From an uncultured Chloroflexaceae bacterium (GTDB taxonomy: Bacteria > Chloroflexota > Chloroflexia > Chloroflexales > Chloroflexaceae), in the NCBI GenBank assembly GCA_964410555.1, contig CAYPHM010000009.1, positions 7,488 to 71,487 of the forward strand: DNA of 64,000 nucleotides. The letters run 5' to 3'. The notes under the pieces were generated by a model. That model had not been told where the DNA came from. It worked only from the letters and a program-made list of their open reading frames with translations, and ran no database searches. Positions within the stretch are counted from its first letter, which is position 1, and every line of letters begins with the position of its first letter. The position numbers and the translations under genes were made by a program. Positions 12,208 to 63,992 of this stretch are shown one piece after another.

Positions 12208-12274
12208 AAGGAGGGGAGATGATTTCTAGCTCTTGAAAAGTGTTCAGAAGTGTGTTGTACTACGCTTTATGGGT

Positions 12275-15193: not shown

Positions 15194-15234
15194 ACATCTG
15201 CAACAGAACACAGAAAACCAGGGTGCAATATGAG

Positions 15235-16703: not shown

Positions 16704-17080
16704 TCCCCCCCCATCCCCTCGCCCCGCATCCCACCGCGGGGGGAAGGGGCTGTTAGGCTCCCCCTCGCCCTTTATGGGAGAGGGGGCAGGGGGAGAGGGT
16801 ATTCCGGGCAACCCCATCCCCTAGCCCCCTGTTGGTACCAGTGTTCCCGGTGGGATTGAGGAGGGAGAGGGTGTTCCGGGCAACCCCATCCCCTAGCCCC
16901 TTACCCCCGCTACGCGGGAGAAGGGGAACGAACACCGGGCGGCTCCCCCTCGCCCGAACGAGCCGCGAGTGAGCGGATGTATCCTTTGTATCCCCCTCGC
17001 CCTTTATGGGAGAAGGGGCAGGGGGAGAGGATAGGTAAAAAGGGCAAAAATTCTTTGATTGTGCGACTTTGCAATCACCC
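16704..17080. repeat. GC-rich modular repeat cluster (several B units, A unit, C module)
   Basis: CCCCATCCCCTAGCCCC occurs twice. CTCCCCCTCGCCCTTTATGGGAGAGGGGGCAGGGGGAG is followed by AAAAAGGGCAAAAATTCTTTGATTGTGCGACTTTGCAATCACCC. Confidence 0.9.
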
Positions 17081-17189
17081 TACGGCAAAGTTCTGTGAAC
17101 TTTGGCTATGGGGGGTTCATGACAATGTTGCCAGAACCCCCCATGCCCTAGTATTGTGTCCTCTTTGGTTGCCTAGCTACTCATCTACG

Positions 17190-18680: not shown

Positions 18681-18810
18681 CCTCCTTGCCCTTTATGGCA
18701 GAGGGGGCAGGGGGAGCGGGAGTAAAAAAGGGTTTTAATGCTTATCATTGCGCGACTTTGCCATGCCCCTGGAACGCCGGCGGGACGTTGCATGCAACGT
18801 CCCGCCGGCG
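18681..18810. repeat. GC-rich repeat (A unit, C-like module) plus a 36-nt perfect palindrome
   Basis: CCTCCTTGCCCTTTATGGCAGAGGGGGCAGGGGGAGCGGGAG, then ..GCGCGACTTTGCCATGCCCC, then CGCCGGCGGGACGTTGCATGCAACGTCCCGCCGGCG (18775-18810). Confidence 0.9.
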
Positions 18811-18841: not shown

Positions 18842-19501
18842 TTATACGCCAAGTTTGCGCTTGAGTTCTTCCAATTCCGCATCTACGCCACTTTCCGCTT
18901 CCAGCTTGCGAAACTGATTTTCTAACGTATCGGTTTCTAGCTCGGCTAGGGCTTCAGCCTTTGCGAGACGGTCATCTACGCGGCTTTCGAGCATATCGAG
19001 CTTGTCCATTGCCGTGACCCTGCCCAAGTTGCGGGTGGTCTGTTGGAGAGTCTCTTGGGTCTTGGCACGGTTCTGCTTGGCGACAATGAGGTCACGGTGG
19101 GCTTTGGTCTCTGCCATGCGGGTCTCCAGGTTGGCGAGGGCTTCCTGGAGTAGGTCAACCTGTTCTGCTTGGGCAGTATACTGCCCTTCATACTGAGCAC
19201 GAACACGATCTGCTTGGTTTTTGCGTTGCAATGCCGCCTTTGCCAAATCTTCTTTGTCCGCACGCAGGGCTTGCTCGGCTTTGCCTTGCCACTTTTCTAC
19301 CTCCGCCTCATATTGGATTTTGCGCTGTTGCAGGCGGGTTTCATCTGCCATAGCCGAAGCGACCTCTGTTTTGGCAGCATAGTACTGGTCATTCAGTTGA
19401 CGCAGGTACTCATTAGCCATCTTCTCTGGGTCTTCGGCATTATCCAACAGATCGTTGATGTTAGCACTCAAGATGTCCTTAATACGACCAAGAAACGACA
19501 T
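18842..19501 (-). CDS. pspA: PspA/IM30 (Vipp1/LiaH) family protein, tandem copy 4 of 4 in transcription order
   Basis: MSFLGRIKDILSANINDLLDNAEDPEKMANEYLRQL.. plus coiled-coil heptads. The ATG at 19501 is preceded by GAAGGAG; the ORF track start at 19537 is probably too long. Confidence 0.9.
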   Translation of the reverse strand: MSFLGRIKDILSANINDLLDNAEDPEKMANEYLRQLNDQYYAAKTEVASAMADETRLQQRKIQYEAEVEKWQGKAEQALRADKEDLAKAALQRKNQADRVRAQYEGQYTAQAEQVDLLQEALANLETRMAETKAHRDLIVAKQNRAKTQETLQQTTRNLGRVTAMDKLDMLESRVDDRLAKAEALAELETDTLENQFRKLEAESGVDAELEELKRKLGV

Positions 19502-19541
19502 AGTTCTTCTCCTTCTATTATGTGGATACCAAACCAACTAC

Positions 19542-20183
19542 TCACACACCGAGCGAACGCTTCAACTCTTCCAACTCGGCATCAACCGCCGAATCCTCAT
19601 CTAGCTGTTGAAACTCGGATTCCAACGAGCTGGATTCTAGCTGTACTATTTGCTCCTTCTTCATTTGGGCGAACTCGTCCATAGCAGACTGTACGCCCAT
19701 AGATGCTGAAGTCCCACGTATTGCCTGCATGGTCTGCATACGGTGCTTCTTGACAACGGTGAAATCAATTAAGTCAAGACAGGCTTTGGTCTCACCTATC
19801 TGCATTTCTAGGGTTGCCAGTGCATCTTGCAGTTTGTCTACATGTTCACAATAGGCTTCATATCGCTGCGTGTACTGTTGGGCGAGACGTTCAGCATGTT
19901 TTTTGCGTTGCAATGCCTGCTTTGCCAAATCCTCTTTGCCAGCACGCAAGGTTTGCTCCGCTTTGCCTTGCCATCTTTCTACCTCCGCTTCATACTGGAC
20001 TTTGCGCTGTTGTAGGCGGGTTTCATCTGCCATAGCCGAAGCCACCTCTGTTTTGGCTTCATAATACTGCTCGTTTAGTTGGCGCAGGTACTCATTTGCC
20101 AACTTCTCTGGATCCTTAGCATTATCCAACAAATCGTTGATGTTAGTACTCAAGATGTCCTTAATACGACCAAAAAACGACAT
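19542..20183 (-). CDS. pspA: PspA/IM30 family protein, tandem copy 3 of 4 (mosaic)
   Basis: The N-terminal two thirds resemble copies at 18842 and 20914. The C-terminal ~75 aa resemble the copy at 20224 (..LESSSLESEFQQLDEDSAVDAELEELKRSLG). Confidence 0.88.
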   Translation of the reverse strand: MSFFGRIKDILSTNINDLLDNAKDPEKLANEYLRQLNEQYYEAKTEVASAMADETRLQQRKVQYEAEVERWQGKAEQTLRAGKEDLAKQALQRKKHAERLAQQYTQRYEAYCEHVDKLQDALATLEMQIGETKACLDLIDFTVVKKHRMQTMQAIRGTSASMGVQSAMDEFAQMKKEQIVQLESSSLESEFQQLDEDSAVDAELEELKRSLGV

Positions 20184-20223
20184 AGTTGTTCTTCTTACTA
20201 TAACTGGATACCAGACCGAACAC

Positions 20224-20883
20224 TTACAAACCGAGCGAACGCTTCAACTCTTCCAATTCGGCATCAACCGCCGAATCCTCGTCTAGCTGTTGAAATTCAG
20301 ACTCCAACGAGCTGGATTCTAGCTGCGCCATCGCTTCTGTTTGGGCGACCTGATGATCCACCCGCTGCTCCATCTGGTCGAGCTTGTCCATTGCAGACTT
20401 CCCACCCATCGCGGCTGAAGCCCCTCGTATTGCCTGCATCGTCTGCATGCGATTCTTCTTGGCAACGATAAGATCGCGGCGGGCTTGCGTTTCAGTTATC
20501 CGCGACTCCAGTAAGGCTAACGCTTCTTCCAAATCGTCTACCTGCTCGTCTTGTGCAGCATACTGCTTTTCATACTGTTCTGCAAGTTGACGGGCTTGGA
20601 GTTTTTGTTGCAACGCCTGCTTTGCCATATCTTCATTGCCATCACGCAGCGCAATCTCTGCCCGTCTTTGCCAGCGTTCTTTATCACTTTGAGCCGTGAT
20701 CATCTGCTGGTATAGGCGGCTTTCGTCTGCCATTGCCTGTGCCACCTGCGTCTTGGCTTCATAATACTGCTCGTTTAGTTGGCGCAGGTACTCATTTGCC
20801 ATCTTTTCCGGGTCTTCAGCTTTGGTAAGCATGTCGTTGACATTGGAACTGATAAGGTCTTTGACCCGTTCTAGGAGAGCCAT
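20224..20883 (-). CDS. pspA: PspA/IM30 family protein, tandem copy 2 of 4
   Basis: MALLERVKDLISSNVNDMLTKAEDPEKMANEYLRQLNEQYYEAK.. with a full-length PspA-type coiled coil. Confidence 0.9.
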   Translation of the reverse strand: MALLERVKDLISSNVNDMLTKAEDPEKMANEYLRQLNEQYYEAKTQVAQAMADESRLYQQMITAQSDKERWQRRAEIALRDGNEDMAKQALQQKLQARQLAEQYEKQYAAQDEQVDDLEEALALLESRITETQARRDLIVAKKNRMQTMQAIRGASAAMGGKSAMDKLDQMEQRVDHQVAQTEAMAQLESSSLESEFQQLDEDSAVDAELEELKRSLGL

Positions 20884-20913
20884 ACAGTCATGCTCCTTTC
20901 TTGCAAGGTTACG

Positions 20914-21573
20914 TTATATTCCCATACTACGTTTGAGTTCTGCCAGTTCTGAATCCACTCCAGAGGTCATCTCCATCTCACGAAACTGATTATCTAGTGT
21001 ATTCGACTCAAGCTCCGTCAATGCCTCGGCTTTGGCTAGACGATCATCTACCTTTTCCTCAAGCTGGTCGATTTTGTCCATTGCGGAGATTTTGCCCATG
21101 CTGTTGACGGTGGTTTGGAGAGATTCTTGGGTGCGGGCGCGGTTTTGCTTGGCGGTAATGAGGTCACGGCGAGCTTTGGTCTCACCTATCTGCGTTTCTA
21201 AGTTTGCCAGTGCATCTTGCAATTTGTCTACCTGATCAGACTGGGCTTCATATTGCTGCGTGTACTGCTGAGCGAGACGTTCGGCTTGTTTTTTGCGTTG
21301 TAGGGCTTGTTTTGCCAAGTCCTCTTTGCTAGATCGTAGGGCTTGCTCTGCCATGCCCTGATATTTCTCAAGCTCTTTTTCGGCTTCAACCATTTTTTGC
21401 TGAAGCCGGGTCTCGTCTGCCATTGCCTGTGCCACCTGAGTTTTCGCTTCATAATACTGCTGGTTCAGTTGGCGCAGGTATTCATTGGCCATTTTTTCTG
21501 GGTCTTCCGCTTTATCCAATGCATCATTGACATTCGCACTGAAAAAGTCTTTTATTCTTCCAAAGAACGACAT
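20914..21573 (-). CDS. pspA: PspA/IM30 family protein, tandem copy 1 of 4
   Basis: MSFFGRIKDFFSANVNDALDKAEDPEKMANEYLRQLNQQYYEAK.. RBS AAAGGAGG lies upstream. Confidence 0.9.
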   Translation of the reverse strand: MSFFGRIKDFFSANVNDALDKAEDPEKMANEYLRQLNQQYYEAKTQVAQAMADETRLQQKMVEAEKELEKYQGMAEQALRSSKEDLAKQALQRKKQAERLAQQYTQQYEAQSDQVDKLQDALANLETQIGETKARRDLITAKQNRARTQESLQTTVNSMGKISAMDKIDQLEEKVDDRLAKAEALTELESNTLDNQFREMEMTSGVDSELAELKRSMGI

Positions 21574-22613: not shown

Positions 22614-24164
22614 TTACGCTCGCACCACTGTCACCACCCGCCCGGTGGGGGTCGTTGCCTGTTCCGTTGTCGTGCGCTCGGCTATTCGTCCCTGGTCGCT
22701 CCGCTGGTCAAAGATGACAAGCCACCCCGTCTCCAGCGACAAGCCACTGAGGTATTTGTCCAGTTGCGCTAACCCTTGTGGCAGCGGGTCAGATTCCCTA
22801 TCTCGCCAGACCTTCAGTTCCAGCGCGAGAGCTTGGGTGCCATAGCGTACACACAAGTCCATGCGTCCACTGCCAATCGCATACTCCCGTTCTATCGTGC
22901 CGCCTGAGTTGACCACCCGATGCAAGAACGCCATCAGCACGAGGTGCGGGGCGATCTCGTGGTAGGAGGCAGTTCTGAGCAAGGGTTCGCCGTGCTGCCG
23001 CCAGAAAAGCAAAAAGGCTTCCAATAGTTTGTTGAAGTCTAGGTTGCCGTCAGGGGTGCGCCATGTATCCTGGATATGAGGCAGCGATGCTTGAGTCGTA
23101 TACGCCAATACTCGCGGTAAGACTTCTTGGTAGATAGGATTGGCAATCACTAATCCCCCCGCCTGATCCATACGGCACAGTCCAAGATTTAGCACAAACT
23201 TGATGTCATCGGTTGGGATGTCATCCAACGTTTGTCCTGCCAAGATCGGTTCTATCACCTGCTGTACCCGTGGCTCCCGCAGTCGCTCTGCCAAACTGTC
23301 GAGGTGGGTATCCTGCCGTTGGATGAGGATTTCTTTTGCCGCGTCTATATGCTCCGGTGTGATAGGCATAGTCGGGTCAGGGACGAGGTTTTCCACGACT
23401 TGTCGGGCGAGCGCATTGACTAACCAGGGCTGCCCCTGGGTGAGGTGAAATGCCCGTGCTACCGCTTCAGGGGTGAACACCTGCCCCGTATCTTCCGTGT
23501 GTTGCTGATAGAGCATCCCGACTTCCTCGTGGGTAAAGTTGCGGAGCGTGATAGATTCTACTTTGATGTTGAAGGGGCTAGAGGTATGCAACCTATCACT
23601 CCCCCCCGAAGCGACTTTGTAGTCGCGTACATCTCGTAAGCCAATGAGTGCCAACGACCACGGGAATGCATCGGGTCGTCGCGGATAGCCGTCACGCAAT
23701 TGGCGTAATACCGAGATGAGGGTCGTATTGCTCAAGGCATCTATTTCATCGAGAAAAATCACCAGTGGGCGGGGCAGGGCTTGCACCCAATGTTCTAAAG
23801 CGGTGCTAATCCCTGCTCCTTCTGATACTTGAGACCATTCAGGGGGGTAAAATTCTTGGGGGAGTTGCCATTTGGCTGCCGCACGCCACCGATTTAAGAT
23901 AGCAGCTTCTGCCTTGTCCACTTCATCATTGAAGGCTGCGCCAACTTCCATCGAAACGAAGACCGCAATATAGGTTCCCTCTGCGGTCAGTTCTTTGGCA
24001 AGCGACCACAATGCCGTGGTCTTACCCGTCTGTCGCGGGGCATGCAGTACAAAATACAGTTTTTGATCAATAAGCCGTTGCACCTGCGGCAGCCGAGCCA
24101 TAGGGGAAAGCATGTAGTGATCTTGGGGATTGCACGGTCCGGCGGTATTAAACCAACGTTTCAT
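22614..24164 (-). CDS. AAA-type ATPase with C-terminal PD-(D/E)XK-like motif, copy A
   Basis: Walker A HAPRQTGKTT, Walker B LVIFLDEID, C-terminal GRMDLCV..ALELKV. The ATG at 24164 matches the start of copy B. Confidence 0.8.
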   Translation of the reverse strand: MKRWFNTAGPCNPQDHYMLSPMARLPQVQRLIDQKLYFVLHAPRQTGKTTALWSLAKELTAEGTYIAVFVSMEVGAAFNDEVDKAEAAILNRWRAAAKWQLPQEFYPPEWSQVSEGAGISTALEHWVQALPRPLVIFLDEIDALSNTTLISVLRQLRDGYPRRPDAFPWSLALIGLRDVRDYKVASGGSDRLHTSSPFNIKVESITLRNFTHEEVGMLYQQHTEDTGQVFTPEAVARAFHLTQGQPWLVNALARQVVENLVPDPTMPITPEHIDAAKEILIQRQDTHLDSLAERLREPRVQQVIEPILAGQTLDDIPTDDIKFVLNLGLCRMDQAGGLVIANPIYQEVLPRVLAYTTQASLPHIQDTWRTPDGNLDFNKLLEAFLLFWRQHGEPLLRTASYHEIAPHLVLMAFLHRVVNSGGTIEREYAIGSGRMDLCVRYGTQALALELKVWRDRESDPLPQGLAQLDKYLSGLSLETGWLVIFDQRSDQGRIAERTTTEQATTPTGRVVTVVRA

Positions 24165-27217: not shown

Positions 27218-28768
27218 ATGAAACGTTGGTTTAATACCGCCGGACCGTGCAATCCCGAAGATCACTACATGCTCTCCCCTATGGCTCGGCTGCCGCAGGT
27301 GCAACGGCTTATTGATCAAAAACTGTATTTTGTACTGCATGCCCCGCGACAGACGGGTAAGACCACGGCATTGTGGTCGCTTGCCAAAGAACTGACCGCA
27401 GAGGGAACCTATATCGCTGCGTTGGTCTCCATGGAAGTTGGCGCAGCCTTTCCTGATTCTATTGACAAGGCAGAGTATGCCATTTTGGGCAGTTGGTATG
27501 GCTCGCTAACCGTTGAATTACCGCCTGAATACCACCCTCCCAAATGGACAGATACCGGAGAGGGCTTTGGTATCAGTATGGCATTACAGACATGGACGCA
27601 GCAAGCATCACGTCCGCTGGTGCTCTTTCTCGACGAGATAGATGCGCTGAGTAACATGACCCTCATCTCAGTATTACGCCAATTGCGGGATGGCTACCGG
27701 TTACGTCCCCAAGCGTTCCCGTGGTCGTTGGCACTCATTGGCTTACGAGATGTGCGCGACTACAAAGTCGCTTCGGGGGGGAGTGATAGGTTGCATACCT
27801 CTAGCCCCTTCAACATCAAAGTAGAATCTATCACGCTCCGCAACTTTACCCACGAGGAAGTCGGGATGCTCTATCAGCAACACACGGAAGATACGGGGCA
27901 GGTGTTCACCCCTGAAGCGGTAGCACGGGCATTTCACCTCACCCAGGGGCAGCCCTGGTTAGTCAATGCGCTCGCCCGACAAGTCGTGGAAAACCTCGTC
28001 CCTGACCCGACTATGCCTATCACACCGGAGCATATAGACGCGGCAAAAGAAATCCTCATCCAACGGCAGGATACCCACCTCGACAGTTTGGCAGAGCGAC
28101 TGCGGGAGCCACGGGTACAGCAGGTGATAGAACCGATCTTGGCAGGACAAACGTTGGATGACATCCCAACCGATGACATCAAGTTTGTGCTAAATCTTGG
28201 ACTGTGCCGTATGGATCAGGCGGGGGGATTAGTGATTGCCAATCCTATCTACCAAGAAGTCTTACCGCGAGTATTGGCGTATACGACTCAAGCATCGCTG
28301 CCTCATATCCAGGATACATGGCGCACCCCTGACGGCAACCTAGACTTCAACAAACTATTGGAAGCCTTTTTGCTTTTCTGGCGGCAGCACGGCGAACCCT
28401 TGCTCAGAACTGCCTCCTACCACGAGATCGCCCCGCACCTCGTGCTGATGGCGTTCTTGCATCGGGTGGTCAACTCAGGCGGCACGATAGAACGGGAGTA
28501 TGCGATTGGCAGTGGACGCATGGACTTGTGTGTACGCTATGGCACCCAAGCTCTCGCGCTGGAACTGAAGGTCTGGCGAGATAGGGAATCTGACCCGCTG
28601 CCACAAGGGTTAGCGCAACTGGACAAATACCTCAGTGGCTTGTCGCTGGAGACGGGGTGGCTTGTCATCTTTGACCAGCGGAGCGACCAGGGACGAATAG
28701 CCGAGCGCACGACAACGGAACAGGCAACGACCCCTACCGGGCGGGTGGTGACAGTGGTGCGAGCGTGA
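27218..28768 (+). CDS. AAA-type ATPase with C-terminal PD-(D/E)XK-like motif, copy B (inverted duplicate of copy A)
   Basis: The last ~345 aa are identical to copy A. The N-terminal ~65 aa are near identical and residues ~67-175 are diverged. Confidence 0.8.
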   Translation: MKRWFNTAGPCNPEDHYMLSPMARLPQVQRLIDQKLYFVLHAPRQTGKTTALWSLAKELTAEGTYIAALVSMEVGAAFPDSIDKAEYAILGSWYGSLTVELPPEYHPPKWTDTGEGFGISMALQTWTQQASRPLVLFLDEIDALSNMTLISVLRQLRDGYRLRPQAFPWSLALIGLRDVRDYKVASGGSDRLHTSSPFNIKVESITLRNFTHEEVGMLYQQHTEDTGQVFTPEAVARAFHLTQGQPWLVNALARQVVENLVPDPTMPITPEHIDAAKEILIQRQDTHLDSLAERLREPRVQQVIEPILAGQTLDDIPTDDIKFVLNLGLCRMDQAGGLVIANPIYQEVLPRVLAYTTQASLPHIQDTWRTPDGNLDFNKLLEAFLLFWRQHGEPLLRTASYHEIAPHLVLMAFLHRVVNSGGTIEREYAIGSGRMDLCVRYGTQALALELKVWRDRESDPLPQGLAQLDKYLSGLSLETGWLVIFDQRSDQGRIAERTTTEQATTPTGRVVTVVRA

Positions 28769-29784: not shown

Positions 29785-29950
29785 TTCCCCCCCGCCCCGC
29801 GTGGTCTGAGCGGGTGTGGTAGCAAGGGAGTGGGGGGGTAGCAAGGGAGCATGCTCCCTTGCTACCCCCCCCTTTCTCCCCACGATGGGGGCAGGGGTTG
29901 GGGGAACGGGAGCAAAAAAGGGCTATGATTTCTTTCATTGCAGGGTTCAA
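29785..29950. repeat. GC-rich repeat cluster with a 40-nt palindrome
   Basis: G7-TAGCAAGGGAGCATGCTCCCTTGCTA-C7 at 29832-29871, a partial direct copy TGGTAGCAAGGGAG just upstream, then GGGGCAGGGGTTGGGGGAACGGGAGCAAAAAAGGGC. Confidence 0.9.
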
Positions 29951-33390: not shown

Positions 33391-33640
33391 ACCCGCTCCC
33401 CCTTGCTCTCCTTACAAGGGTAGGTCTGTCTACCTTTTTATTCTCCCCCTGCCCCCGCTCCCATAGGGCGACACTCGCTCTCCCCCTGCCCCCGCTCCCG
33501 ACACCCTCTCCCCCTGCCCCCTCTCCCATTCCAGGGCGAGGGGGAGCTGCCCGGTTCCCCTTCTCCCGTGTAGCGGGGGAAGGGGCTAGGGGATGGGGGG
33601 ATGCGCGGTGGGACGCGGGGCTAGGGGATGGGGGGGTTGC
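33391..33640. repeat. GC-rich modular repeat cluster (D-like, A and B units)
   Basis: ACAAGGGTAGGTCTGTCTACC, several CTCCCCCTGCCCCCGCTCCC units, and GGTTCCCCTTCTCCCGTGTAGCGGGGGAAGGGGCTAGGGGATGGGGGG. Confidence 0.9.
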
Positions 33641-33751
33641 TCGAACTTTGACGTAGCCCTATAGGTAGTATTGCATCCCCGTGCAGAAATCAGGTATAAT
33701 GCTCTATGGTAAAGGTTAGCCACAACGCTAACGAAATGAGAGGATGTCCCA

Positions 33752-36700
33752 ATGTCTACCTTCACCATGGATGCCAATGACCCCGCTATTGATTCCTACT
33801 ATGCCCAATTGCGCCAGTATCGCCAGCAACAGGCATCCCACGAAATGGCTATCCGTCAAGCCTTCGCCAACTTGTTGGAGCGCGTCTCAGCCACTGTTAC
33901 CTGGACGCTCATCTTGGAGCGGACGCTCGACAACCGCGCTCGCCCCGATGGGGTGCTGCTGGATACCCTCCGCATCCCGCGGGGCTATTGGGAAGCCAAA
34001 GACCCCAACGATACCCTCGATGAAGAAATAACCAAGAAAATCGAGCGGGGCTACCCCACCTTCAACACCATTTTTGAGAATAGCGAACGCGGCGTGTTGT
34101 ATCAGTATGGCAAGGTCGTGTTGGACGTAGACTTGCGTAGTCCTAGCGAGTTAGCCAAGCTCCTCTCGCGCTTTTTCAGCTACACCGGTGCCGATATTGA
34201 GAAATTCAACGCAGCAGTGCGGGAATTTCAAGAGCGCATCCCCCTGCTTGCCCACGAATTGATAGCCCGTATTGACCAGGAGTTTGCCGACAATAGCGCG
34301 TTTCAAAAAGCGTTTACCGCCTTTCATACGTTGTGTCAACAGTCTATGCATCCCAACATCAGCCGGGGCGTGGTCGAAGAAATGCTGGTGCAACATCTGC
34401 TCACCGAGCGGCTCTTCCGTACCATCTTTGACAACCCCGAATTTGTGCAACGCAATGCGATTGCTGCCGAAATCGAAACGGTGATTACGGCACTCACCAG
34501 TCGAGCGTTTAGCCGACGGGATTTTTTTGGGCAACTAGATACGGTGTATCATACGATTGAAGAGAATGCACGGCGTATTGAGGATTTTACCGCGAAACAA
34601 CCCTTCTTAAATGTCGTCTACGAACGCTTTTTTCACGGCTTTTCGGTGAAGCAAGCGGACACGCACGGCATTATCTACACGCCGCAAGCTATTGTAGATT
34701 TTATGTGTGCGAGTGTGGAAGAGGTATTGCAACAAGAGTTTCACCTGACGCTTGCCTCACCGAGGGTACAGATACTCGACCCATGTGTGGGGACGGGCAA
34801 CTTCATGCTCAACCTGCTTCAGCGTATCCCCAAGCGCGACCTAGCACGAAAATATGAGCACGAATTGTTTTGCAACGAGGTCTTGCTTTTGCCCTACTAT
34901 ATCGCCTCGTTGAATATTGAACACGCCTATTTTACCTTAATGCAGCAGTATCAAACGTTCCCTGGCATCTGTTTGGTAGATACGCTCAACCTTGCCGAAA
35001 GCCAACAACAAACGTTTTTCAACGAAGTGAATAGCCAGCGGATGGCACGGCAAAAAGATGCCCAATTGATGGTCATTATCGGCAATCCTCCCTACAACGT
35101 GGGGCAGCAAAACGAAAACGACAACAACAAAAACCGTCCTTATACGGTGATAGACGAAAAGATACGCACAACGTATGCCAAAGACTCTCGTGCCAGCAAC
35201 AAAAACGCCTTGAGTGATATGTACGTCAAGTTTTTTCGTTGGGCAGTAGACCGTCTCGAAGACCGCGATGGCATCGTGTGCTTTGTGACCAATAACTCTT
35301 TTGTCAATCAAATCGCTTTTGATGGTATGCGTAAGCATCTTTTGCAAGACTTTACCCACATCTATCACCTTGATTTACATGGCAATGTCCGGCAGAATCC
35401 CAAACTCTCAGGAACGAAACACAATGTATTTGGTATTCAGGTGGGGGTAGGCATAACTATTGCCATACGCAATCGGAAGAATCCTACTTGTGGGTTGCGC
35501 TATTTTCGTGTGCCTGAGTATTGGGATAGAGAAGAGAAATATGCTTTTTTGGCAACAAAAGGAGCTATTCAATATATAGCGTGGCAAGAATTACAGCCAG
35601 ATGCCAAAGGAAATTGGCTCACTGAAGGGTTACATGCTGAGTTTGCTACCTTTTTGCCCTTGGGTACAAAACCAGCCAAAGCAGACAACCGACACGATGT
35701 CGAAACGATATTCAAGACCTATTCAATAGGAGTTCAAACAGGACGTGATAGTTGGTTATATAATTTTCACAGAGAAGAACTTATTACAAAAGCTCGTATG
35801 ATGATAAAGACCTACAATGCAGAACTATCACGTTGGATACGAGCGGGAAAGCCAAAAGATATAGATGATTTTGTCTTGGCAGAATCCAGCAAAATCAAGT
35901 GGAGTAGTCGTCTCAAAGAGTGCTTTGTGCGTGAAATAAAGGCTACTTTTCATAAAGACAATATTCGACATGGGCTTTATCGTCCATTTACCCGGCAATA
36001 TTTTTACTTTGATAGTATTATGACCCATCGTCAAGGGCTATTTCCCTACATCTTCCCCACACCCGCCAGCGAAGCCGAGAATGTGGTCATTTGCGTGAAT
36101 ATGACCAATGAAAAACCGTTCACTTGTCTTGTAACAAATACTATACCGAATTTGGTTGTTACTGGGGGATTTGGTTCAGCAACGCAATGTTTCCCCTTCT
36201 ATACCTACGACGAGGACGGCAACAACCGCCGCGAGAATATCACCGATTGGGCAGTGCGCCAGTTTGCCGTACACTATGGACTACCTATCACCAAGTGGGA
36301 CATCTTTCACTACACCTACGCCCTGTTGCACCATCCCGGCTACCGCGAACGCTACGCCGAAAACCTCAAGCGCGAGCTACCTCGCATCCCCATGCTTGGC
36401 ACAAGCGACACCTTCACGACCCTGGTAGCCATTGGGCAGCAGTTGCGTCATCTGCATGTGGAGTATGAAACCGTCGAAGAACATCCCGCATTGGAATGGG
36501 GAGAAAACAAGGCGGTGCCGTGGTCGTGGCAAGTGCAGAAGATGAAGCTCAACCGGGAGAAAACCGCTGTTATCGTCAATCCAAGCCTGACGATAACGGG
36601 TATTCCCCCAAGCACGTTTGCCTATCAGTTGGGCAGTCGTTCGGCATTAGAATGGGTGATAGACCAACACCAAGTCAAAACCGACAAGCGTAGCGGCATC

Positions 36701-36826
36701 ATCAACGACCCCAATCGGGCGGATAACCGCGAATACCTAGCGCGGCTCGTGGGACGAGTTGTTACCGTGAGCGTGGAGACGATGGCGTTGGTGGAGCGGC
36801 TAGGTGCGGAGGTGGATGTGGGGTAG
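33752..36826 (+). CDS. Fused restriction-modification enzyme (Type IIG/ISP-like): PD-ExK-like N-terminus plus gamma-class N6-adenine DNA methyltransferase plus specificity region
   Basis: N-terminal RPDGVLLD..RGYWEAKD (D..ExK), motif I ILDPCVGTGNF, motif IV GNPPYNVGQ, and a long C-terminal region. No helicase domain. Confidence 0.75.
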   Translation: MSTFTMDANDPAIDSYYAQLRQYRQQQASHEMAIRQAFANLLERVSATVTWTLILERTLDNRARPDGVLLDTLRIPRGYWEAKDPNDTLDEEITKKIERGYPTFNTIFENSERGVLYQYGKVVLDVDLRSPSELAKLLSRFFSYTGADIEKFNAAVREFQERIPLLAHELIARIDQEFADNSAFQKAFTAFHTLCQQSMHPNISRGVVEEMLVQHLLTERLFRTIFDNPEFVQRNAIAAEIETVITALTSRAFSRRDFFGQLDTVYHTIEENARRIEDFTAKQPFLNVVYERFFHGFSVKQADTHGIIYTPQAIVDFMCASVEEVLQQEFHLTLASPRVQILDPCVGTGNFMLNLLQRIPKRDLARKYEHELFCNEVLLLPYYIASLNIEHAYFTLMQQYQTFPGICLVDTLNLAESQQQTFFNEVNSQRMARQKDAQLMVIIGNPPYNVGQQNENDNNKNRPYTVIDEKIRTTYAKDSRASNKNALSDMYVKFFRWAVDRLEDRDGIVCFVTNNSFVNQIAFDGMRKHLLQDFTHIYHLDLHGNVRQNPKLSGTKHNVFGIQVGVGITIAIRNRKNPTCGLRYFRVPEYWDREEKYAFLATKGAIQYIAWQELQPDAKGNWLTEGLHAEFATFLPLGTKPAKADNRHDVETIFKTYSIGVQTGRDSWLYNFHREELITKARMMIKTYNAELSRWIRAGKPKDIDDFVLAESSKIKWSSRLKECFVREIKATFHKDNIRHGLYRPFTRQYFYFDSIMTHRQGLFPYIFPTPASEAENVVICVNMTNEKPFTCLVTNTIPNLVVTGGFGSATQCFPFYTYDEDGNNRRENITDWAVRQFAVHYGLPITKWDIFHYTYALLHHPGYRERYAENLKRELPRIPMLGTSDTFTTLVAIGQQLRHLHVEYETVEEHPALEWGENKAVPWSWQVQKMKLNREKTAVIVNPSLTITGIPPSTFAYQLGSRSALEWVIDQHQVKTDKRSGIINDPNRADNREYLARLVGRVVTVSVETMALVERLGAEVDVG

Positions 36827-36833
36827 TATTCAG

Positions 36834-36990
36834 GGCAATTACAAAGTCGCACAATCAAAGAAAATTTGCCCTTCTTGTCCACCCGCTCCCCCTGCCCCCT
36901 CTCCCATAAAGGGCGAGGGAGAGCCAAACATCTCCTTCCCCCGCGGTAGGGGAAAGGACAGGAGATGGGGGTTGCCCAGAGAGTCAGGGG
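36834..36990. repeat. GC-rich repeat (C module in reverse orientation, A unit, degenerate B unit)
   Basis: The reverse complement of 36834-36880 matches 17035-17080 closely by eye. It is followed by CTCCCCCTGCCCCCTCTCCCATAAAGGGCGAGGGAGAG. Confidence 0.9.
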
Positions 36991-37118
36991 AAGGGAAAAA
37001 TGTCTGCTACAACTGTGAATAATACCGTGATTTCCGGTTTGGGGCAATAGTGGTATACTTGGGCAAATGCCGATAACCTTCAGAGGTTCTTCACCAGGAT
37101 CACGACAGGAGCATATAC

Positions 37119-47769: not shown

Positions 47770-47942
47770 GGGGCGGGGACAACAACCCGTGTTCCCCCCT
47801 GCCCCCTGCTCCCATAGGGCGAGGGGGAGCCGATTCCCCTTCTCCCATGTAGTGGGGCGGGGCAAGAGGATGAGGACTGCCCGGTGCTCGTTCCCCTTCT
47901 CCCACATAGTAGGACGCGGACGGAAAACGGGGGGATGAGGAT
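47770..47942. repeat. GC-rich modular repeat cluster (degenerate A/B units)
   Basis: TTCCCCCCTGCCCCCTGCTCCCATAGGGCGAGGGGGAGCCGATTCCCCTTCTCCCATGTAGTGGGGCGGGG... Confidence 0.85.
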
Positions 47943-50538: not shown

Positions 50539-50647
50539 GTTACATCTTGCTTTACCTATCTATTATACCACGCCTTTTCTGCTGTTGCTTTGTATTGTAT
50601 GGGTGTGGCAGATATTTTTCCCTCGTCATAAAAGGGAACTATAGCCC

Positions 50648-50894
50648 CTGCCTTTCCCCTCTCAAGGGTGGGTCAGCCGGGCAAAACCCACTAGGTTATT
50701 CCCCCCATCCCCTGCCCCTCTCGACACCCTCTCCCCCTGCCCCCTCTCGACACCCTCTCCCCCTGCCCCCTCTCCCATAAAGGGCGAGGGGGAGTTGCCC
50801 GGTTCCCCTTCTCCCGTGTAGCGGGGGAAGGGGCTAGGGGATGGGGGGATGCACGGTGGGGGAAGGGTCTAGGGGGGAGCGGGTGGGAAAGCGA
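50648..50894. repeat. GC-rich modular repeat cluster (D, A x3, B units) bracketed by a bipartite inverted repeat
   Basis: TCAAGGGTGGGTCAGCCGGGCAAAACCCAC, three CTCCCCCTGCCCCCTCTC units, and a B unit with GGGGGAAGGGGCTAGGGGATGGGGGG. Flanking IRs are at 50615-50647 and 50895-50942. Confidence 0.9.
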
Positions 50895-51000
50895 GGGCTA
50901 TAGTTCTTTTGTTCGGCAACAGTAGCTATGACGAGGGAAAAACGTCTGCCACATACCGGGGGGGACGTTCTTACAAAAAACTCCTTTCTCCCTGTGCCTA

Positions 51001-52454: not shown

Positions 52455-52534
52455 ACTAGCCAGGCGAATCTTTGCCCTTTGTGTCCACAACCGGGGTGTG
52501 GCAGCTTCTTTTCCCTCGACTAGAGGGCAATAAC

Positions 52535-52760
52535 TCCCCGTTCCCCCTACTCCCCGCTCCCCCTGCCCCCTCTCCCATTCCGTCCCCTCTCCCCCTGCCC
52601 CCTCTCCCATTCCAGGGCGAGGGGGAGTTGCCCGGTTCCCCTTCTCCCGTGTAGCGGGGGAAGGGGCTAGGGGATGGGGGGGCTGCTCGGTGGGACGCGG
52701 GGCTAGGGGATGGGGGGGCTGCTCGGTAGGACGCGGGGCTAGGGGATGGGGGCTGCCCGG
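52535..52760. repeat. GC-rich modular repeat cluster (A x2, B x3)
   Basis: CTCCCCCTGCCCCCTCTCCCATTCC twice, then GGTTCCCCTTCTCCCGTGTAGCGGGGGAAGGGGCTAGGGGATGGGGGGG and two GGGACGCGGGGCTAGGGGATGGGGG units. Confidence 0.9.
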
Positions 52761-60191: not shown

Positions 60192-61799
60192 TCAGCTTTC
60201 CATCCTGCGATGCATAACCAGTGCCAGCAGCAATGCGACCACACATGCGACCACACCAAACAAAAACATCTCGTCTATCACTTGTGCTGCGACATTCACC
60301 AAAAACAAGGCGGGGTCGCTGGCAGCCAGTGGGTCATCAATACCGGCTTGTCGCAACTGGTGCTGGCGTGTTACCCCCCACACCGTCAACACCGATGCCC
60401 CAAGCGTCATCCCCACCAACCGCAGCGTGATGACCAGTGCCGATGCGCTGCCGTGGTACTCCTCGCTGGCGGTGTTGATAATCACCGTTGCTATGGGTGA
60501 AAGCACCAAGCCTAGCCCTACCCCGGCGAGTACCAACTCTGCCGCCATAACGGTATAGGTCGTGTGGGCTTGCCACGTACTCAGCAGGATAAAGCCCAAC
60601 AATGCGGTTGCCATCCCTCCAACAATAGGCAGCTTTGCCCCCAAGCGATTGGTCAACCACCCACCCGGCACCGCCATTGCTGCCATTGTTAGCGTCAATG
60701 CGGAGAGCATCCACCCGCTATCCCACGCGCCACGCGGTAGGATATTGGGGTCGCCGGGGTTGAAGATTTCCAAGCGGGTATGGATAAAGAGCGGTACGTT
60801 GGCAATAGCCAGGGCTAAGGCAAAGCCAACCAGCATATTTACGCCGCTGGCAATGCCGGCGTTGCGCTGTCGCAGTAACGTTATATCAAACAAGGGGTGG
60901 CGCACCCGATGCTCTACCCAAATGAACAGTGCCAGCATAACCAGCGAGCCGATAACCAGCGGGACGGCATAACTGGGCAGTTCTTGCGTTTGTCCATAGA
61001 AATCTGTCTGGCCTAGCTCTGAGCCAGCAGACAACCCCACATTCAGGGCTATCAAGCTGCCACTGATAAGCAACGATCCCCACCAGTCAAAGCCGCCAGC
61101 AGACCGGCTGGTCTGGACATCGCGCAATGCCCACCACGTCAACACCAGGGCAACTATGCCAAGTGGGACGTTGATCCAGAAGAGCAATCGCCAATCATCA
61201 AACAAGCGCATCAGGATGCCGCCGTAGAGGTGGCCTATCATCCATCCTACCGTCTCTACCGCGGCGACAAAGCCAAGTGCTGGCGCACGTCTTTGTGGGG
61301 GAAAGAGGTCGCCAACCAACGCCATAGAGATAGGCACGACTGCCCCTGCCCCAAACGCCTGCACCACGCGCCCGATGATAACCCCATTGAGGCTACTGGC
61401 GGCTGCCACCAAACCAGACCCGATGATGAAAATGAGCAGACAGACGAAGTACATTATCCGCCGCCCTACCAGGTCAGAGAGCCGCCCCATAAACGTCAGG
61501 CTCACGGTATAGGTCAGCAGGTAGCCGGTGATAATCCATGCTGCATGCCCTAGCTCCGTATCAATAGACACTTGCAGGTCAGACAGGATACGGGGCAGTA
61601 CTGCTGTGACGACTGTTAGGTCTATGGAGCCTACAAAAACGGCAATACAGACCAGTGCCAGCGAGACCATCGGGGGAAACCGTGATGCTCGCTGGTGTGG
61701 CAGTATTGATGGGGTATTTGATGCTTGGGCTGGTGTTGGATGTTGGTGCATAAGGGCGGTGTAGCTAGGATTCGCTTTCTGGACACTCCATCGGGGCAT
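60192..61799 (-). CDS. MFS transporter, 14-TMS drug:H+ antiporter (DHA2/EmrB-QacA) type
   Basis: GSIDLTVVTAVLP, GRLSDLVGRR and about 14 hydrophobic helices. An alternative start at ATG 61751 would remove the 35-nt overlap with the upstream gene. Confidence 0.85.
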   Translation of the reverse strand: MPRWSVQKANPSYTALMHQHPTPAQASNTPSILPHQRASRFPPMVSLALVCIAVFVGSIDLTVVTAVLPRILSDLQVSIDTELGHAAWIITGYLLTYTVSLTFMGRLSDLVGRRIMYFVCLLIFIIGSGLVAAASSLNGVIIGRVVQAFGAGAVVPISMALVGDLFPPQRRAPALGFVAAVETVGWMIGHLYGGILMRLFDDWRLLFWINVPLGIVALVLTWWALRDVQTSRSAGGFDWWGSLLISGSLIALNVGLSAGSELGQTDFYGQTQELPSYAVPLVIGSLVMLALFIWVEHRVRHPLFDITLLRQRNAGIASGVNMLVGFALALAIANVPLFIHTRLEIFNPGDPNILPRGAWDSGWMLSALTLTMAAMAVPGGWLTNRLGAKLPIVGGMATALLGFILLSTWQAHTTYTVMAAELVLAGVGLGLVLSPIATVIINTASEEYHGSASALVITLRLVGMTLGASVLTVWGVTRQHQLRQAGIDDPLAASDPALFLVNVAAQVIDEMFLFGVVACVVALLLALVMHRRMES

Positions 61800-62541
61800 G
61801 AATATCGAAGTCTTCGTTGTACTGGCTGAGGTGCATAATCCAGCGGGTAGGTTCTTCCGGGTCGGAGGCGGTGTCTACCAAGATCATCTTACTCACCCGT
61901 TTGGTTTCGGTGTCTGCCCACACATCTACCTCTACCTCACCAGCGCCAATCATACGATAGCTAATGTCATAGAAGGTGGGGTCGTTAATCGTACCTTGTA
62001 TGTGGTAGTGTGGAGTGTTGTCTTCGTCTAGCTCTTCTATCGTCTCAAGTGTGGCATCCTCAAACTGCTCGCGGATGAGGTAGTCTAGCCCCTGCTCTGG
62101 GTCAAACAAGACAACCGGGTCAAAGACGGAGCCGGGTGGGAGACAACGCCATTTCCGCGTGATGGGATTGGATACGTAGAGTTGCCCATCGAGTGAGACG
62201 AGCCGCACTACGGCTATGCTGCCCACGCTACGAACCCGTATGGCGACCATTGCTGCATCGGGGCGTTCTAGGTCGCCGGCGATGTCTACAATCTGAAACA
62301 TCCCGTCCGGGTCGGCAAAAGCTGGTTTGCCTTCAAAGGTGATGTCAAAGTGAAAGCTGGTCGCATCTTGGGTTGCCTGCATGACCTCATCGGTGATCTG
62401 TGCCACAGAGAGGGTAGGTGTGGGGGTACCCTGTGTTGCTGTTCCCCGCCCACACGCGGCTAGGATGGTGATTGCGGCTAGGATGATAACGCTCAGTATG
62501 TACCTGGGTGTAGGTTGTGAGGTTGGATGGTTTTGTGTCAC
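61765..62541 (-). CDS. LppX/LprAFG (LprG-like) lipoprotein
   Basis: The GTG at 62541 lies 6 nt after AAGGA. Lipobox ILAACG. The central ..DGQLYVSNPITRKWRCLPPGSVFDPVVLFDPEQGLDYL.. resembles the LprG core as I remember it. The ORF track start at 62673 runs into repeat DNA. Confidence 0.6.
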   Translation of the reverse strand: MTQNHPTSQPTPRYILSVIILAAITILAACGRGTATQGTPTPTLSVAQITDEVMQATQDATSFHFDITFEGKPAFADPDGMFQIVDIAGDLERPDAAMVAIRVRSVGSIAVVRLVSLDGQLYVSNPITRKWRCLPPGSVFDPVVLFDPEQGLDYLIREQFEDATLETIEELDEDNTPHYHIQGTINDPTFYDISYRMIGAGEVEVDVWADTETKRVSKMILVDTASDPEEPTRWIMHLSQYNEDFDIHAPMECPESES

Positions 62542-62595
62542 GTTGTATCCTTTGCTTATGTCTTTATCATTAGTGTTCCGTTCTCCGTCCCGTTC

Positions 62596-62885
62596 CGTTG
62601 GTAGAGCCGCTACCTGCCCGGTTCCCCTTCTCCCCACGGTGGGGGAAGGGGCTAGGGGATGGGGGACAAACAACCCTCTCCCCCTGCCCCCTCTCCCATA
62701 AAGGGCGAGGGGGAGGCGTTAGCTGCCCGGTTCCCCTTCTCCCCACGGTGGGGGAAGGGGCTAGGGGATGGGGGGAACCAATTCCCCTTCTCCCCGCGGT
62801 GGGGGAAGGGGCTAGGGGATGGGGGCTGCCCGACCACCCTCTCCCCCTGCCCCCGCTCCCATCCCAGGGCGAGGGAGGCAGGTTT
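62596..62885. repeat. GC-rich modular repeat cluster (B x3 interleaved with A x2), the densest example
   Basis: B units at 62614-62665, 62723-62775 and 62781-62825. A units at 62674-62716 and 62837-62877. Confidence 0.95.
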
Positions 62886-62888
62886 GGG

Positions 62889-63992
62889 CTATTCTGCAAT
62901 GTACAAAAAGAGCCGAGCGCGAATAACGCTTGGATCTTCCGATGGATTGCCTGACATACCGAGCGATTGCAGCGAAGAGATATTGTCTTTCACCTCTTCG
63001 TCTACATCAGCACCGGTATCTTCTGCCAGTTCTGCCATTTTCTGGATGTCCATATAGACCATCCCCCGTTCGGGGGCAGGCAGGTTGTTGAGCAGTGCTT
63101 GGAAGCGGGAGTCGCCAGAAATGGGCGACTCGCCGCCATTGACAGCAGTTTCCATCGTCCCTTCGCCAAAGGCGATAACCAAATCATCATCCACAAAGCC
63201 ATAGCCGCCATAGGTCTGTTCAGTATCAGGCTCTTGGATAAGCCACCACTTAACCCCGGCTATATCCTCAGTCGGGATGTCCATACCGAGGTTTTCTATA
63301 GCGTCGGTGATGTTGTTGATACCCTTTTCTGCTGCCTCACGGTCTGAAGGGGTGATGGTGAAATAGACGGTAGCGGGAACCTCAAAGTCGCCTAGCTCCT
63401 CGCCCGGCAGGATGACCAACGAGGCATCGCCGTTAAACCAATTGAGCAAATCTTCTTCAAGGTCTACCTCATACATCGCCTCGAACATATCGCGCTGCTC
63501 TGCCCCATCAGGTTGGGCTTCAATCGCTTGGATAACCTGATCTTTGAAGGATGGTTGTATGGAGAAGGTCGCAAAGGCGAGTGTCTCGCTGCTAATGCGG
63601 TCTAGGCGGGCTTTGAGATCGCCGGGTTGATAGGTGAAGACGGCACGTTTATCTTCGCTGAGGGCATCAAGGTTCATCGAGTAAACGGATTCAATGAAGA
63701 CTCCCTCTGCTGCCACCCCAGCAGCCAAACCTAAACTCTCCATTGCGCTAATCATTGCGAGGTTTTCTTCTAGCATATCGGCTTGCTCTTCGGGCATTTC
63801 CTCTGAAGCCTGCGAAATAAAGGTTTCATTCAATTGGATGAGGGGTTGTGCATCCATGTAGAAGTAGGAAAACCTGTTTGGTGGCAGATTGATCTGAAAC
63901 TTGGCAAACTTTGGGTTGCTAGAGAGCGAATCTGCCCCACCCGGCTCGCGGTCTATCATCTGTTTGATGTAGTCGGGGTTCGCCATAACCAC
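62889..63992 (-). CDS. Hypothetical protein (possibly 5'-truncated by the window edge)
   Basis: The ORF is continuous to within 8 nt of the window end. Acidic and soluble-looking; no family recognised with confidence. Confidence 0.5.
   Translation of the reverse strand: MVMANPDYIKQMIDREPGGADSLSSNPKFAKFQINLPPNRFSYFYMDAQPLIQLNETFISQASEEMPEEQADMLEENLAMISAMESLGLAAGVAAEGVFIESVYSMNLDALSEDKRAVFTYQPGDLKARLDRISSETLAFATFSIQPSFKDQVIQAIEAQPDGAEQRDMFEAMYEVDLEEDLLNWFNGDASLVILPGEELGDFEVPATVYFTITPSDREAAEKGINNITDAIENLGMDIPTEDIAGVKWWLIQEPDTEQTYGGYGFVDDDLVIAFGEGTMETAVNGGESPISGDSRFQALLNNLPAPERGMVYMDIQKMAELAEDTGADVDEEVKDNISSLQSLGMSGNPSEDPSVIRARLFLYIAE

Follow-up and report, generated by a model that had tools for sequence, protein, structure and literature searches.

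Short G/C-rich repeats that conform to class II intrastrand triplex (ITxF) motifs have been described in bacteria under the names BoxC, PIT, and TMECO. The class has been known for about 30 years, mainly from enterobacteria and cyanobacteria, without a known function or mode of spread. By definition, a class II motif combines Watson-Crick stems of 6–15 nt with at most one mismatch, a first loop of 1–6 nt, and a third arm that is located 3′ of the purine arm, after a loop of 1–6 nt, and is bound antiparallel through G.G:C, A.A:T, and T.A:T triads (PMC4666352; this paper, Holder et al. 2015, NAR 43:10126, also covers the earlier BoxC work and the PIT work of Maher and colleagues). Here, we analyze a 64-kb stretch of DNA from an uncultured Chloroflexaceae bacterium (contig CAYPHM010000009.1; the whole stretch is hereafter the window), in which arrays of GC-rich repeat units of two types, A and B, occupy many of the intergenic regions, the focal array being located at positions 62596–62885. 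Judging from the sequence of the units, we consider it probable that these arrays consist of G/C-rich class II intrastrand triplex motif repeats of the BoxC, PIT, and TMECO class, in two lineage-specific types.

Several properties of the described members of the class are relevant for this comparison. Single-stranded units form a stable triplex in vitro and stop polymerase, circular dichroism (CD) and nuclear magnetic resonance (NMR) indicated a triplex for the Escherichia coli relative, and in comparisons among E. coli strains, loci of the class are more rearranged than control sites (PMC4666352). The most frequent type in E. coli, denoted ‘A mm’, accounts for 13 of the 23 units, and all five inverted pairs in E. 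coli combine a type A unit with a type B unit (PMC4666352). Among cyanobacteria, 443 G/C-rich motifs have been counted in Microcystis aeruginosa, and many are present in Anabaena and Nostoc (PMC4666352).

A dense family of intergenic repeats

The repeat family is real, and the statistical support for it is overwhelming. The first-pass annotation of the window, made from the sequence alone, had listed 13 intergenic repeat loci with a total of about 2.6 kb; a BLAST map built with six hand-defined modules places family members in all 13 of these intervals, which together span 2,607 bp (4.1% of the window), with a GC content of 67%. Of the 21 intergenic regions that reach a length of 100 bp, 13 contain repeats, which make up 38% of the DNA within such regions; the overlap with genes is 2 bp only. 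The occupied regions almost always contain the 3′ end of a gene (12/13), and in those that separate tandem genes, the array is closer to the upstream stop codon than to the downstream start codon in 8 of 9 cases, with the smallest gaps between stop codon and array being 0–12 nt. The first unit after the stop codon is A at five loci and B at four.

Module A (38 nt), when up to three mismatches are allowed, has six matches in the window, at 5069, 16758, 16990, 36886, 50757, and 62678, with 0 expected by chance (100 shuffles). Module B (46 nt) has three matches at the same tolerance, all within the focal locus (62620, 62729, and 62780), and none in shuffled sequence. An unbiased repeat search of the window recovered 13 A-like copies (family D3), nine B-like copies (family D4), and four copies of a 97-nt A-B composite (family D5). 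The A-B pairs at 33504–33600 and 52585–52681 are 99% identical, a 43-nt A unit is present in three exact copies, and tandem part-units recur with periods of 26, 36, and 51 nt (families D4, D9, and D13), so that both local tandem amplification and near-identical distant copies are evident within the window.

Both modules named in the first-pass annotation are borne out by these searches, but the inventory was incomplete, given that the arrays also contain tandem part-units of 26 and 36 nt, two perfect palindromes, and AT-richer boundary modules. The exact consensus of module B is confined to the focal locus and is replaced elsewhere by variants, with either a GTGTAGC loop or the GGGACGCGGGG ‘B2’ form. 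Head-to-tail runs are common, for example, B-B at 62733/62784, B-B2-B2 at 52638–52752, and 26-nt A part-units at 50718–50778. Inverted A(-)/B(+) pairs are found at five positions (5064, 33504, 50753, 52585, and 62674), the B partner in the 5064 pair being a B2-type unit that fails the strict motif scan described below. Short-read contigs of the same organism (SRR7048222/SRR7048223; 100% identity) break off inside arrays, at 36890 and 5173, as multi-copy modules across the genome would cause them to do.

Unit architecture and triplex grammar

A complete unit comprises a pyrimidine (C-rich) arm, a loop, a complementary purine arm, a second loop of 2–6 nt, and a G-rich arm in mirror order to the purine arm. 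The B unit is CCCCTTCTCCC-CACGGT-GGGGGAAGGGG-CTA-GGGGATGGGGG, with purine arm GGGGGAAGGGG and mirror arm GGGGATGGGGG; the A unit, read on the minus strand, is CCCCCTCGCCC-TTTAT-GGGAGAGGGGG-CA-GGGGGAGAGGG, with purine arm GGGAGAGGGGG and mirror arm GGGGGAGAGGG. Units of both types start with CTCCCCC or TTCCCC and finish in G runs. When read on the plus strand, A(+) has the order tail, C arm, loop, G arm, and B(+) has the order C arm, loop, G arm, tail; family D8 of the repeat search places B(-) copies together with A(+) copies. The arm order in the cyanobacterial plasmid copies discussed below makes it clear that A and B are not unrelated modules but the same type of unit on opposite strands.

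We scanned the window with a motif scanner that follows the ITxF criteria (stems of 8–13 nt, at most one mismatch per arm, second loop of 1–6 nt; a first loop of 3–8 nt was permitted, and all matches have 5–6 nt). The scan detects 13 strict class II motifs, with stems of 9–12 nt, at most one mismatch, and loops of 5–6 nt, and each of the 13 shows no more than one triad mismatch (0–1 in 13/13). Dinucleotide shuffles of the whole window contain 0.017 such motifs on average (at most 1 in 60 shuffles), and even shuffles restricted to the 67%-GC repeat loci yield a mean of only 0.26 (at most 3 in 300 shuffles). In the focal array, for which the first-pass annotation had counted three B and two A units, the sequence, the BLAST map, and the motif scan give the order B(+), A(-), B(+), B(+), degenerate A(-). 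The strict motifs of this array are located at 62624–62665 (+), 62674–62713 (-), 62733–62774 (+), and 62784–62825 (+), and the diverged A unit is located at 62836–62878.

Asymmetric purine arms are paired with third arms in mirror, not direct, order: GGGGGAAGGGG/GGGGATGGGGG, GGGAGAGGGGG/GGGGGAGAGGG, GGGAGAAGGGG/GGGGATGAGGG, GGGGGAGGG/GGGAGGGGG, and GGGGGAGGGG/GGGGTGGGGG. At least eight distinct arm variants, drawn from the window, metagenome contigs, a Chloroflexi metagenome-assembled genome (MAG), and cyanobacterial plasmids, obey the mirror order. In the units of the window, the arms of A mirror each other exactly, and those of B follow allowed triads. In the plasmid loci, whose retrieval was itself based on similarity to the window repeats, 22 of the 47 purine-arm hairpins are followed by a mirror arm and 3 by a direct arm, whereas in control loci, mostly actinobacterial, mirror and direct arms are equally rare (4/290 each). 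The outer tails of an A-B pair, CCCTCTCCCCC and CCCCCATCCCC, show three mismatches in 11 positions; given this poor complementarity, and with each tail being the mirror image of the purine arm in its own unit, a long palindrome does not explain the mirror rule.

The first-pass annotation did not recognize the consensus as a named family. The Rfam search agrees to the extent that no known family matches at gathering thresholds, and at E≤1, the matches over the repeat loci are due to chance similarity of hairpins to models of miRNA precursors and small RNAs, and all of them score far below the gathering scores. The unit grammar, however, is that of the described class II triplex motifs, BoxC, PIT, and TMECO (PMC4666352). 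The exact TMECO consensus, CCCTCNCCC N3-6 GGGNGAGGG N3 GGGNGAGGG, is not matched in the window, where no unit combines a 3-nt second loop with the 9-nt core; with the second loop relaxed to 1–6 nt, the TMECO core has five module A matches (0 expected), each with a 6-nt loop. The stem of module B (GGGGGAAGGGG) differs from the TMECO stem.

Relatives in cyanobacteria, other Chloroflexi, and metagenomes

A BLAST search against plasmids identified the A-B composite, about 100 nt in length, on plasmids of Pseudanabaena, Leptolyngbya, Kovacikia, Microchaete/Tolypothrix, and Synechocystis. The A hairpin of the cyanobacterial copies, GCCCCCTCTCCCAT[A/T]AAGGGCGAGGGGG, shares 28 of its 29 nt with that of the window, and both have the mismatch and the ATWAA loop. 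Such near-identity, with a shared mismatch, is better explained by common descent or by horizontal transfer than by convergence; it also hints at horizontal spread between the Chloroflexaceae-like lineage and cyanobacteria, organisms that may share habitats. The window itself contains no tRNA genes and no HIP1 sites (GCGATCGC) and hence does not represent a typical cyanobacterial genome. The cyanobacterial elements have the same A-left, B-right, tail-out layout as those of the window, and GGTTCCCC opens the B unit in both, but they differ in the B stem, which is GGGAGAGGGG with mirror arm GGGGTGAGGG, and in the spacer, which is longer and AT-rich. The cyanobacterial copies examined are mostly single and discrete, some of them in frame in genes, and include no multi-unit arrays.

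One insertion is found on plasmid pPg_01 of P. galeata (181550–181647), where the A-B element makes up an in-frame insertion of about 30 amino acids (GSPHPLAPSPKGRGGTRDLSGSPRPLGEGLGVRE) in a PglX/MmeI-like methyltransferase; this insertion is absent from the Oscillatoria and Planktothrix homologues. A second copy within an annotated coding sequence, on a plasmid of Leptolyngbya BL0902, is in frame across the translated stretch, as read without a comparison of homologues. On plasmids of Pseudanabaena sp. ABRG5-3, two copies of the A-B element (one at 1480–1640) are located between short inverted repeats, for example, gatgttacgtgga ... tccacgtaacatc. In sequence, these copies look as if the loop of a pre-existing hairpin had received the element or as if the element had an additional outer arm. 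In a search for empty sites of two Pseudanabaena copies, no orthologous locus was found among plasmids.

In a scan of metagenomes with the 18-mer of the B mirror arm, 15 of the 89 occurrences have the complementary arm CCCCTTCCC and a variable loop upstream, compared to 0.24 expected. The contigs that carry the 18-mer have a GC content of 48–66%, the matches are mostly single and partly due to chance, and the two viral matches lack the complementary arm. Among one-genome-per-species contigs, the nearest relatives of the carboxyltransferase come from Chloroflexaceae/Chloroflexi MAGs, with 90% and 85% amino-acid identity. The exact A and B modules are not present in the loci of these two relatives; the MAG with 85% identity (a Chloroflexi genome with 65% GC) contains, at 2549–2639, a variant A-B-like pair with the same GCCCGGTT linker, the arms of which have co-varied (CCCTCCCCC, GGGGGAGGG, and mirror arm GGGAGGGGG).

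With the cyanobacterial element as the query, BLAST against 5,426 E. coli genomes gave no match at E≤0.01, a negative result due to the shortness of the query relative to that database; the basis of the link to E. coli is instead the published sequences.

The arrays along the window

The remaining arrays vary widely in composition. Between the genes for PNPase and EF-G, two degenerate B-type units (minus strand; 2711–2808) are detected by the relaxed scan only. The array directly 3′ of EF-G (5012–5304) begins with a hairpin of two inverted half-units at 5012–5050, a feature that the first-pass annotation had described correctly as a stem 11 nt after the stop codon: the stem comprises about 16 bp (-26.2 kcal/mol as DNA; z = -6.6) and starts 11 nt past the end of the EF-G open reading frame (ORF) at 5001. 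It is followed by a strict motif at 5064–5104 (-), a B/B2 unit at 5108–5159, a G-tail part-unit at 5170–5192, a degenerate A unit at 5205–5246, and a boundary module that ends AGGAAAAAGAGTCTGCCACA at 5285–5304. The locus at 12869–12942 consists of one B2-type unit (CCCTGCG-GTGGGA-CGCGGGG plus a G tail; minus strand) that abuts the stop codon of a PAS/STAS gene and is 96% complementary to 5114–5159 (I9 of the repeat search). At 15029–15193, the order is B(-), perfect palindrome C (GGTAGCAAGGGAGCATGCTCCCTTGCTACC), degenerate B(+), and palindrome D (ACGTTGCATGCAACGT core).

The largest array (16704–17100) runs in the reverse orientation, B2(-), A(-), B(-), B(-), A(-), boundary module E, and includes a sole strict motif at 16760–16799 (+). 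A degenerate A(-) unit, an E-type boundary module, and palindrome D follow the 3′ end of the first PspA gene at 18681–18810, and palindrome C, a degenerate B(+) unit, and a boundary module are found between convergent genes at 29785–29950. The locus at 33391–33652 combines tandem 26-nt A part-units, an A-B inverted pair with strict motifs at 33504–33544 (-) and 33557–33600 (+), and a B2 G-tail unit (families D5, D9, and D13). At 36833–37011, boundary module E precedes a strict motif at 36882–36919 (-), a degenerate B(+) unit, and a terminal AGGGAAAAATGTCTGCTACA module; two short-read contigs terminate inside the A unit of this locus. One degenerate A and two degenerate B units are located at 47770–47942. 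The locus at 50604–50953, in a divergent intergenic region, is a 350-nt imperfect long palindrome with nested inverted repeats, which contains 26-nt A part-units, strict motifs at 50753–50792 (-) and 50805–50848 (+), and one more B-like unit; its terminal inverted repeats (50604–50630 and 50927–50953) are 27 nt long and 93% complementary. Finally, between convergent genes at 52497–52760, a terminal boundary module is accompanied by A part-units, an A-B pair with strict motifs at 52585–52625 (-) and 52638–52681 (+), and two 36-nt tandem B2 G-tail units.

Palindromes C (GGTAGCAAGGGAGCATGCTCCCTTGCTACC) and D (based on ACGTTGCATGCAACGT) occur twice each, 3′ of genes, and accompany arrays at 15089–15118, 29836–29867, 15167–15194, and 18775–18810. 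They are not triplex-type units. Palindrome C begins with GTAG, but that GTAG is base-paired.

Alternative explanations

The arrays could also be interpreted as MITE-like (miniature inverted-repeat transposable element) non-autonomous transposons of about 200–350 bp that are bounded by terminal inverted repeats formed by the AT-richer P and E modules and moved by a transposase of an insertion sequence (IS) encoded elsewhere, with the triplex-type units as internal cargo. We consider this interpretation unlikely. In its favor, the 50604–50953 locus is a long palindrome with complementary ends, and the terminal motif AGGGAAAAANNTCTGCCACA occurs five times in the window (0.07 expected), always at the edge of an array and pointing outward; furthermore, E-type boundary modules are located beside A units at 17042, 18725, and 36833, and the related cyanobacterial element is a discrete insertion in a gene. 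However, both ends are present at one locus only; elsewhere, an array has a single boundary module, E and P ends in combination, or no boundary module at all. The first-pass annotation had named a match to a known IS or MITE, with terminal repeats and target-site duplications, as one observation that would overturn its view of the repeats; terminal repeats indeed exist at that single locus, but there is no target-site duplication at 50604/50953, where the flanks share no direct repeat, and no parent IS: no IS with these ends was found in the window, in which a truncated MerR/resolvase fragment is the sole sign of a recombinase, and a comparison with 72,556 plasmids gave no match to the P and E modules. 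As a candidate promoter, the boundary module was rejected, given that only 3 of 8 copies point at a downstream gene and that a perfect consensus promoter of the gene at 51069 is located outside the repeat.

The position of the arrays next to stop codons brings up the improbable scenario that the repeats are elements acting at the 3′ ends of RNA, that is, terminators without a U tract or exonuclease blocks that protect the upstream mRNA. Apart from the prevalence of gene 3′ ends in the occupied regions and the proximity of arrays to the upstream stop codon, this scenario draws on the strong folding of the arrays as RNA on either strand (for the focal array, the z-scores are -4.1 for the plus strand and -3.5 for the minus strand). 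The same placement would result, however, from purifying selection against insertions in promoters, and one array is located in a divergent promoter region. The orientation of the arrays is independent of the direction of transcription, as indicated by the nearly even numbers of loci with A and B first, and no T-run terminator coincides with an array between 47 and 64 kb; taken together, these two observations weaken the case for a strand-specific RNA role. In addition, the E. coli units of the class showed neither promoter nor terminator activity, and RNA does not form purine-motif triplexes (PMC4666352).

There is still less to recommend the view that the repeats are G-quadruplex or i-motif elements, in which the four G tracts of the purine and mirror arms fold and the fold is under selection. 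As read from the sequence, GGGGGAAGGGGCTAGGGGATGGGGG and GGGAGAGGGGGCAGGGGGAGAGGG fit the four-fold G3+ N1-7 pattern, and B2 part-units without the C-rich arm retain four G tracts. However, a quadruplex requires neither the complementary pyrimidine arm nor the mirror-ordered A/T interruptions, both of which are conserved across variants, and the CD and NMR data on the E. coli relative, as mentioned above, indicated a triplex (PMC4666352).

The least probable candidates, which we consider highly doubtful, are hairpins of the REP/BIME (REPIN) kind, spread by a RAYT (a Y1 HUH transposase) and with secondary roles such as nucleoid-protein binding: units that are short imperfect, extragenic palindromes in mosaic clusters with common inverted pairs, as well as the existence of GTAG-type REPs in Chloroflexi, for example, Thermomicrobium (PMC3733652), would fit, but there is no unpaired GTAG or CGTC tag at the foot of the A or B hairpin (GTAG is found only inside some B loops, as GTGTAGC), the head-to-tail runs that are frequent in the window are rare in REP families (PMC3733652), no Y1_Tnp domain was detected among the 46 window ORFs scanned with Pfam, and the conserved mirror arm has no role in REP recognition. 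Accordingly, of the REP/BIME-like mosaic proposed in the first-pass annotation, the interspersed, intergenic, modular, and hairpin-forming layout stands, and the membership does not, for lack of the tag and of a RAYT among the 46 ORFs and in view of the head-to-tail runs. A CRISPR array is ruled out by the irregular spacing, and a protein-coding origin is ruled out by the presence of the repeats in all frames on both strands.

A possible mode of folding, amplification, and spread

Under the class II triplex interpretation, which we favor, the first two arms of a unit would form a hairpin when the DNA becomes transiently single-stranded in the course of replication, transcription, or repair, and the mirror arm would then occupy the major groove of this hairpin through reverse-Hoogsteen G.G:C, A.A:T, and T.A:T triads. 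With type A on one strand and type B on the other, the units make up inverted A-B pairs of about 100 nt. Folded units may provoke replication slippage, so that units and part-units multiply locally and arrays grow and erode; near-identical copies would spread between intergenic regions, probably as discrete A-B elements, and the gene-free arrays would be tolerated mainly just 3′ of genes. Overall, the repeats are likely to destabilize the genome locally and not to have a dedicated role in regulation. In vivo triplex formation, slippage as the amplifier, and mobility are all inferred here.

Several observations weigh against this interpretation or parts of it. A number of units are degenerate or are part-units without the pyrimidine arm, such as the B2 tandems at 52688–52752; in these, the G tracts persist, but the triplex grammar is no longer complete. 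In addition, each unit qualifies both as a plain hairpin and as a canonical four-tract G-quadruplex motif, and the choice between triplex, hairpin, and quadruplex cannot come from sequence alone. For the class as a whole, no triplex has been demonstrated in vivo, footprinting with dimethyl sulfate (DMS) in E. coli was negative, and in double-stranded DNA, the duplex prevails over the triplex (PMC4666352). The copy number beyond the 64-kb window is deduced from the assembly breaks alone, the similarity across phyla could in part reflect convergence on a constrained grammar, and searches of the window and of plasmids revealed no target-site duplication, empty site, or transposase for the repeats.

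The P. galeata insertion, the Leptolyngbya copy, and the 27-nt terminal inverted repeats at 50604–50953 favor a discrete mobile unit. This leads to a bolder proposal that we put forward tentatively, as a possibility with the odds against it: the A-B pair of about 100 nt might be an active miniature element that is mobile within genomes and between phyla (Cyanobacteria, Chloroflexota, and perhaps Proteobacteria), is inserted or copied by virtue of its folded single-strand structure rather than through conventional terminal repeats, can insert in frame into genes, and has given rise here to arrays that serve as hot spots of recombination, for instance, around the low-GC Type ISP gene at 33752–36826.

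Genomic context and annotation

The genes of the window are ordinary chromosomal ones, including those for PNPase, EF-G, PolA, FtsK, RNase J, MiaA, a PuhE-like DUF3623 protein, and a Type ISP restriction enzyme. Among the 46 scanned ORFs, no transposase domains were found apart from a truncated MerR/resolvase fragment (12233–12577). This ORF combines a MerR-type helix-turn-helix with only the first ~30 residues of a serine-resolvase domain, is located 290 nt upstream of a repeat unit, and, from its sequence, resembles the remains of an IS607-type recombinase. The Type ISP restriction-modification gene (33752–36826) overlaps the 2-kb bin with the lowest GC content (34001–36000; 0.46) and has repeat arrays on both sides, which fits its acquisition or rearrangement at repeat-bearing sites.

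Repeats of other kinds were noticed as well. A GGGATAA heptanucleotide is repeated in tandem about 14 times at 12121–12218, at the end of ORF 10481–12133, and the far end of a 6,984-bp short-read contig of the same organism falls, by arithmetic, inside this repeat. The low-complexity C-terminal tail of PNPase (GSRGGGSRGGGSRGGDRDRGGDR...RPRPRRRT; 2338–2552), which follows the S1 domain, derives from degenerate 15/18-nt repeats. Four tandem PspA/IM30 paralogues at 18842–21573 form a DNA repeat with a period of about 690 nt and 62–88% identity between copies. A 1,156-nt inverted duplication with 98% identity (22616–23771 and 27611–28766) encompasses two AAA-ATPase genes that flank a CNNM/CorC transporter pair and looks like a recent duplication or gene conversion.

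The repeats also affect gene prediction in the way that the first-pass annotation had pointed out. Spurious ORFs generated by the repeats are present at 62381–62701 (+), 62570–62899 (-), 62598–62954 (+), and 62659–63057 (+), and ORF 61765–62673 is falsely extended, its N-terminal start being the repeat-derived LFVPHPLAPSPTVGRRGTG. A lipoprotein signal peptide and lipobox (ILAAC) lie about 60–75 residues into this ORF, and the Pfam match to LppX_LprAFG starts at residue 91; because both are well downstream of the start, the 5′ extension is artefactual. The arrays are thus a hazard for annotation and assembly, through spurious ORFs, false 5′ extensions, and broken short-read assemblies, and masking them is advisable in annotation pipelines for this lineage.

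Comparison with known systems

Palindromic elements of Rickettsia are small and insert in frame in genes, as the cyanobacterial relatives of the window repeats can. Bacterial MITEs, such as Nezha and Correia, are likewise small, non-coding, and palindromic, like the window repeats, one locus of which has 27-nt terminal inverted repeats. The window elements differ from both the MITEs and the Rickettsia elements in that their ends vary by locus and in that two paired triplex-type units, not one long hairpin, form their core. Nezha and Correia are tabulated among MITEs (PMC3184786); in the accessible text of the Nezha and SDR literature, no matching consensus was found.

With REP/BIME elements, of which two superfamilies are defined by an unpaired GTAG or CGTC tag (Di Nocera et al. 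2013; PMC3733652), the window units share short, GC-rich imperfect palindromes, an extragenic position that is mostly 3′ of genes, mosaics with accessory motifs, and inverted dimers. Unlike REPs, the window units have a conserved third (mirror) arm, commonly form head-to-tail runs, and lack the tag.

The E. coli BoxC/TMECO repeats resemble the window repeats in the five-part grammar of the unit, in strictly intergenic placement, and in the combination of highly conserved stems with variable loops. The pyrimidine-arm G mismatch, CCCTCGCCC opposite GGGAGAGGG, is common to module A and the E. coli ‘type A mm’, and the pairs of the window are heterotypic inverted A+B pairs, like those of E. coli. 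The differences are in the details of the unit, in its arrangement, and in the host. The stems are 11–12 nt long in the window and 9 nt in E. coli, and the positions of the A residues differ; the pairs are mostly tail-out in the window but, as read from the published coordinates, tail-in in four of the five E. coli pairs; arrays of up to five units, tandem part-units, and AT-richer boundary modules are found only in the window. The density is also far higher in the window, with 13 strict motifs in 64 kb as against 23 in the entire MG1655 chromosome, and the host here is Chloroflexaceae-like, whereas that of the E. coli BoxC repeats is a proteobacterium.

Given its two clean unit types, exact mirror covariation, high density, visible local amplification, and the in-frame insertion of the cyanobacterial relative, the window is a good system for testing whether it is the triplex fold, and not the hairpin or the quadruplex, that is conserved, and whether the A-B pair is mobile. 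The arrays are not a new kind of element; they are a lineage-specific, unusually dense, array-forming member of a described class.

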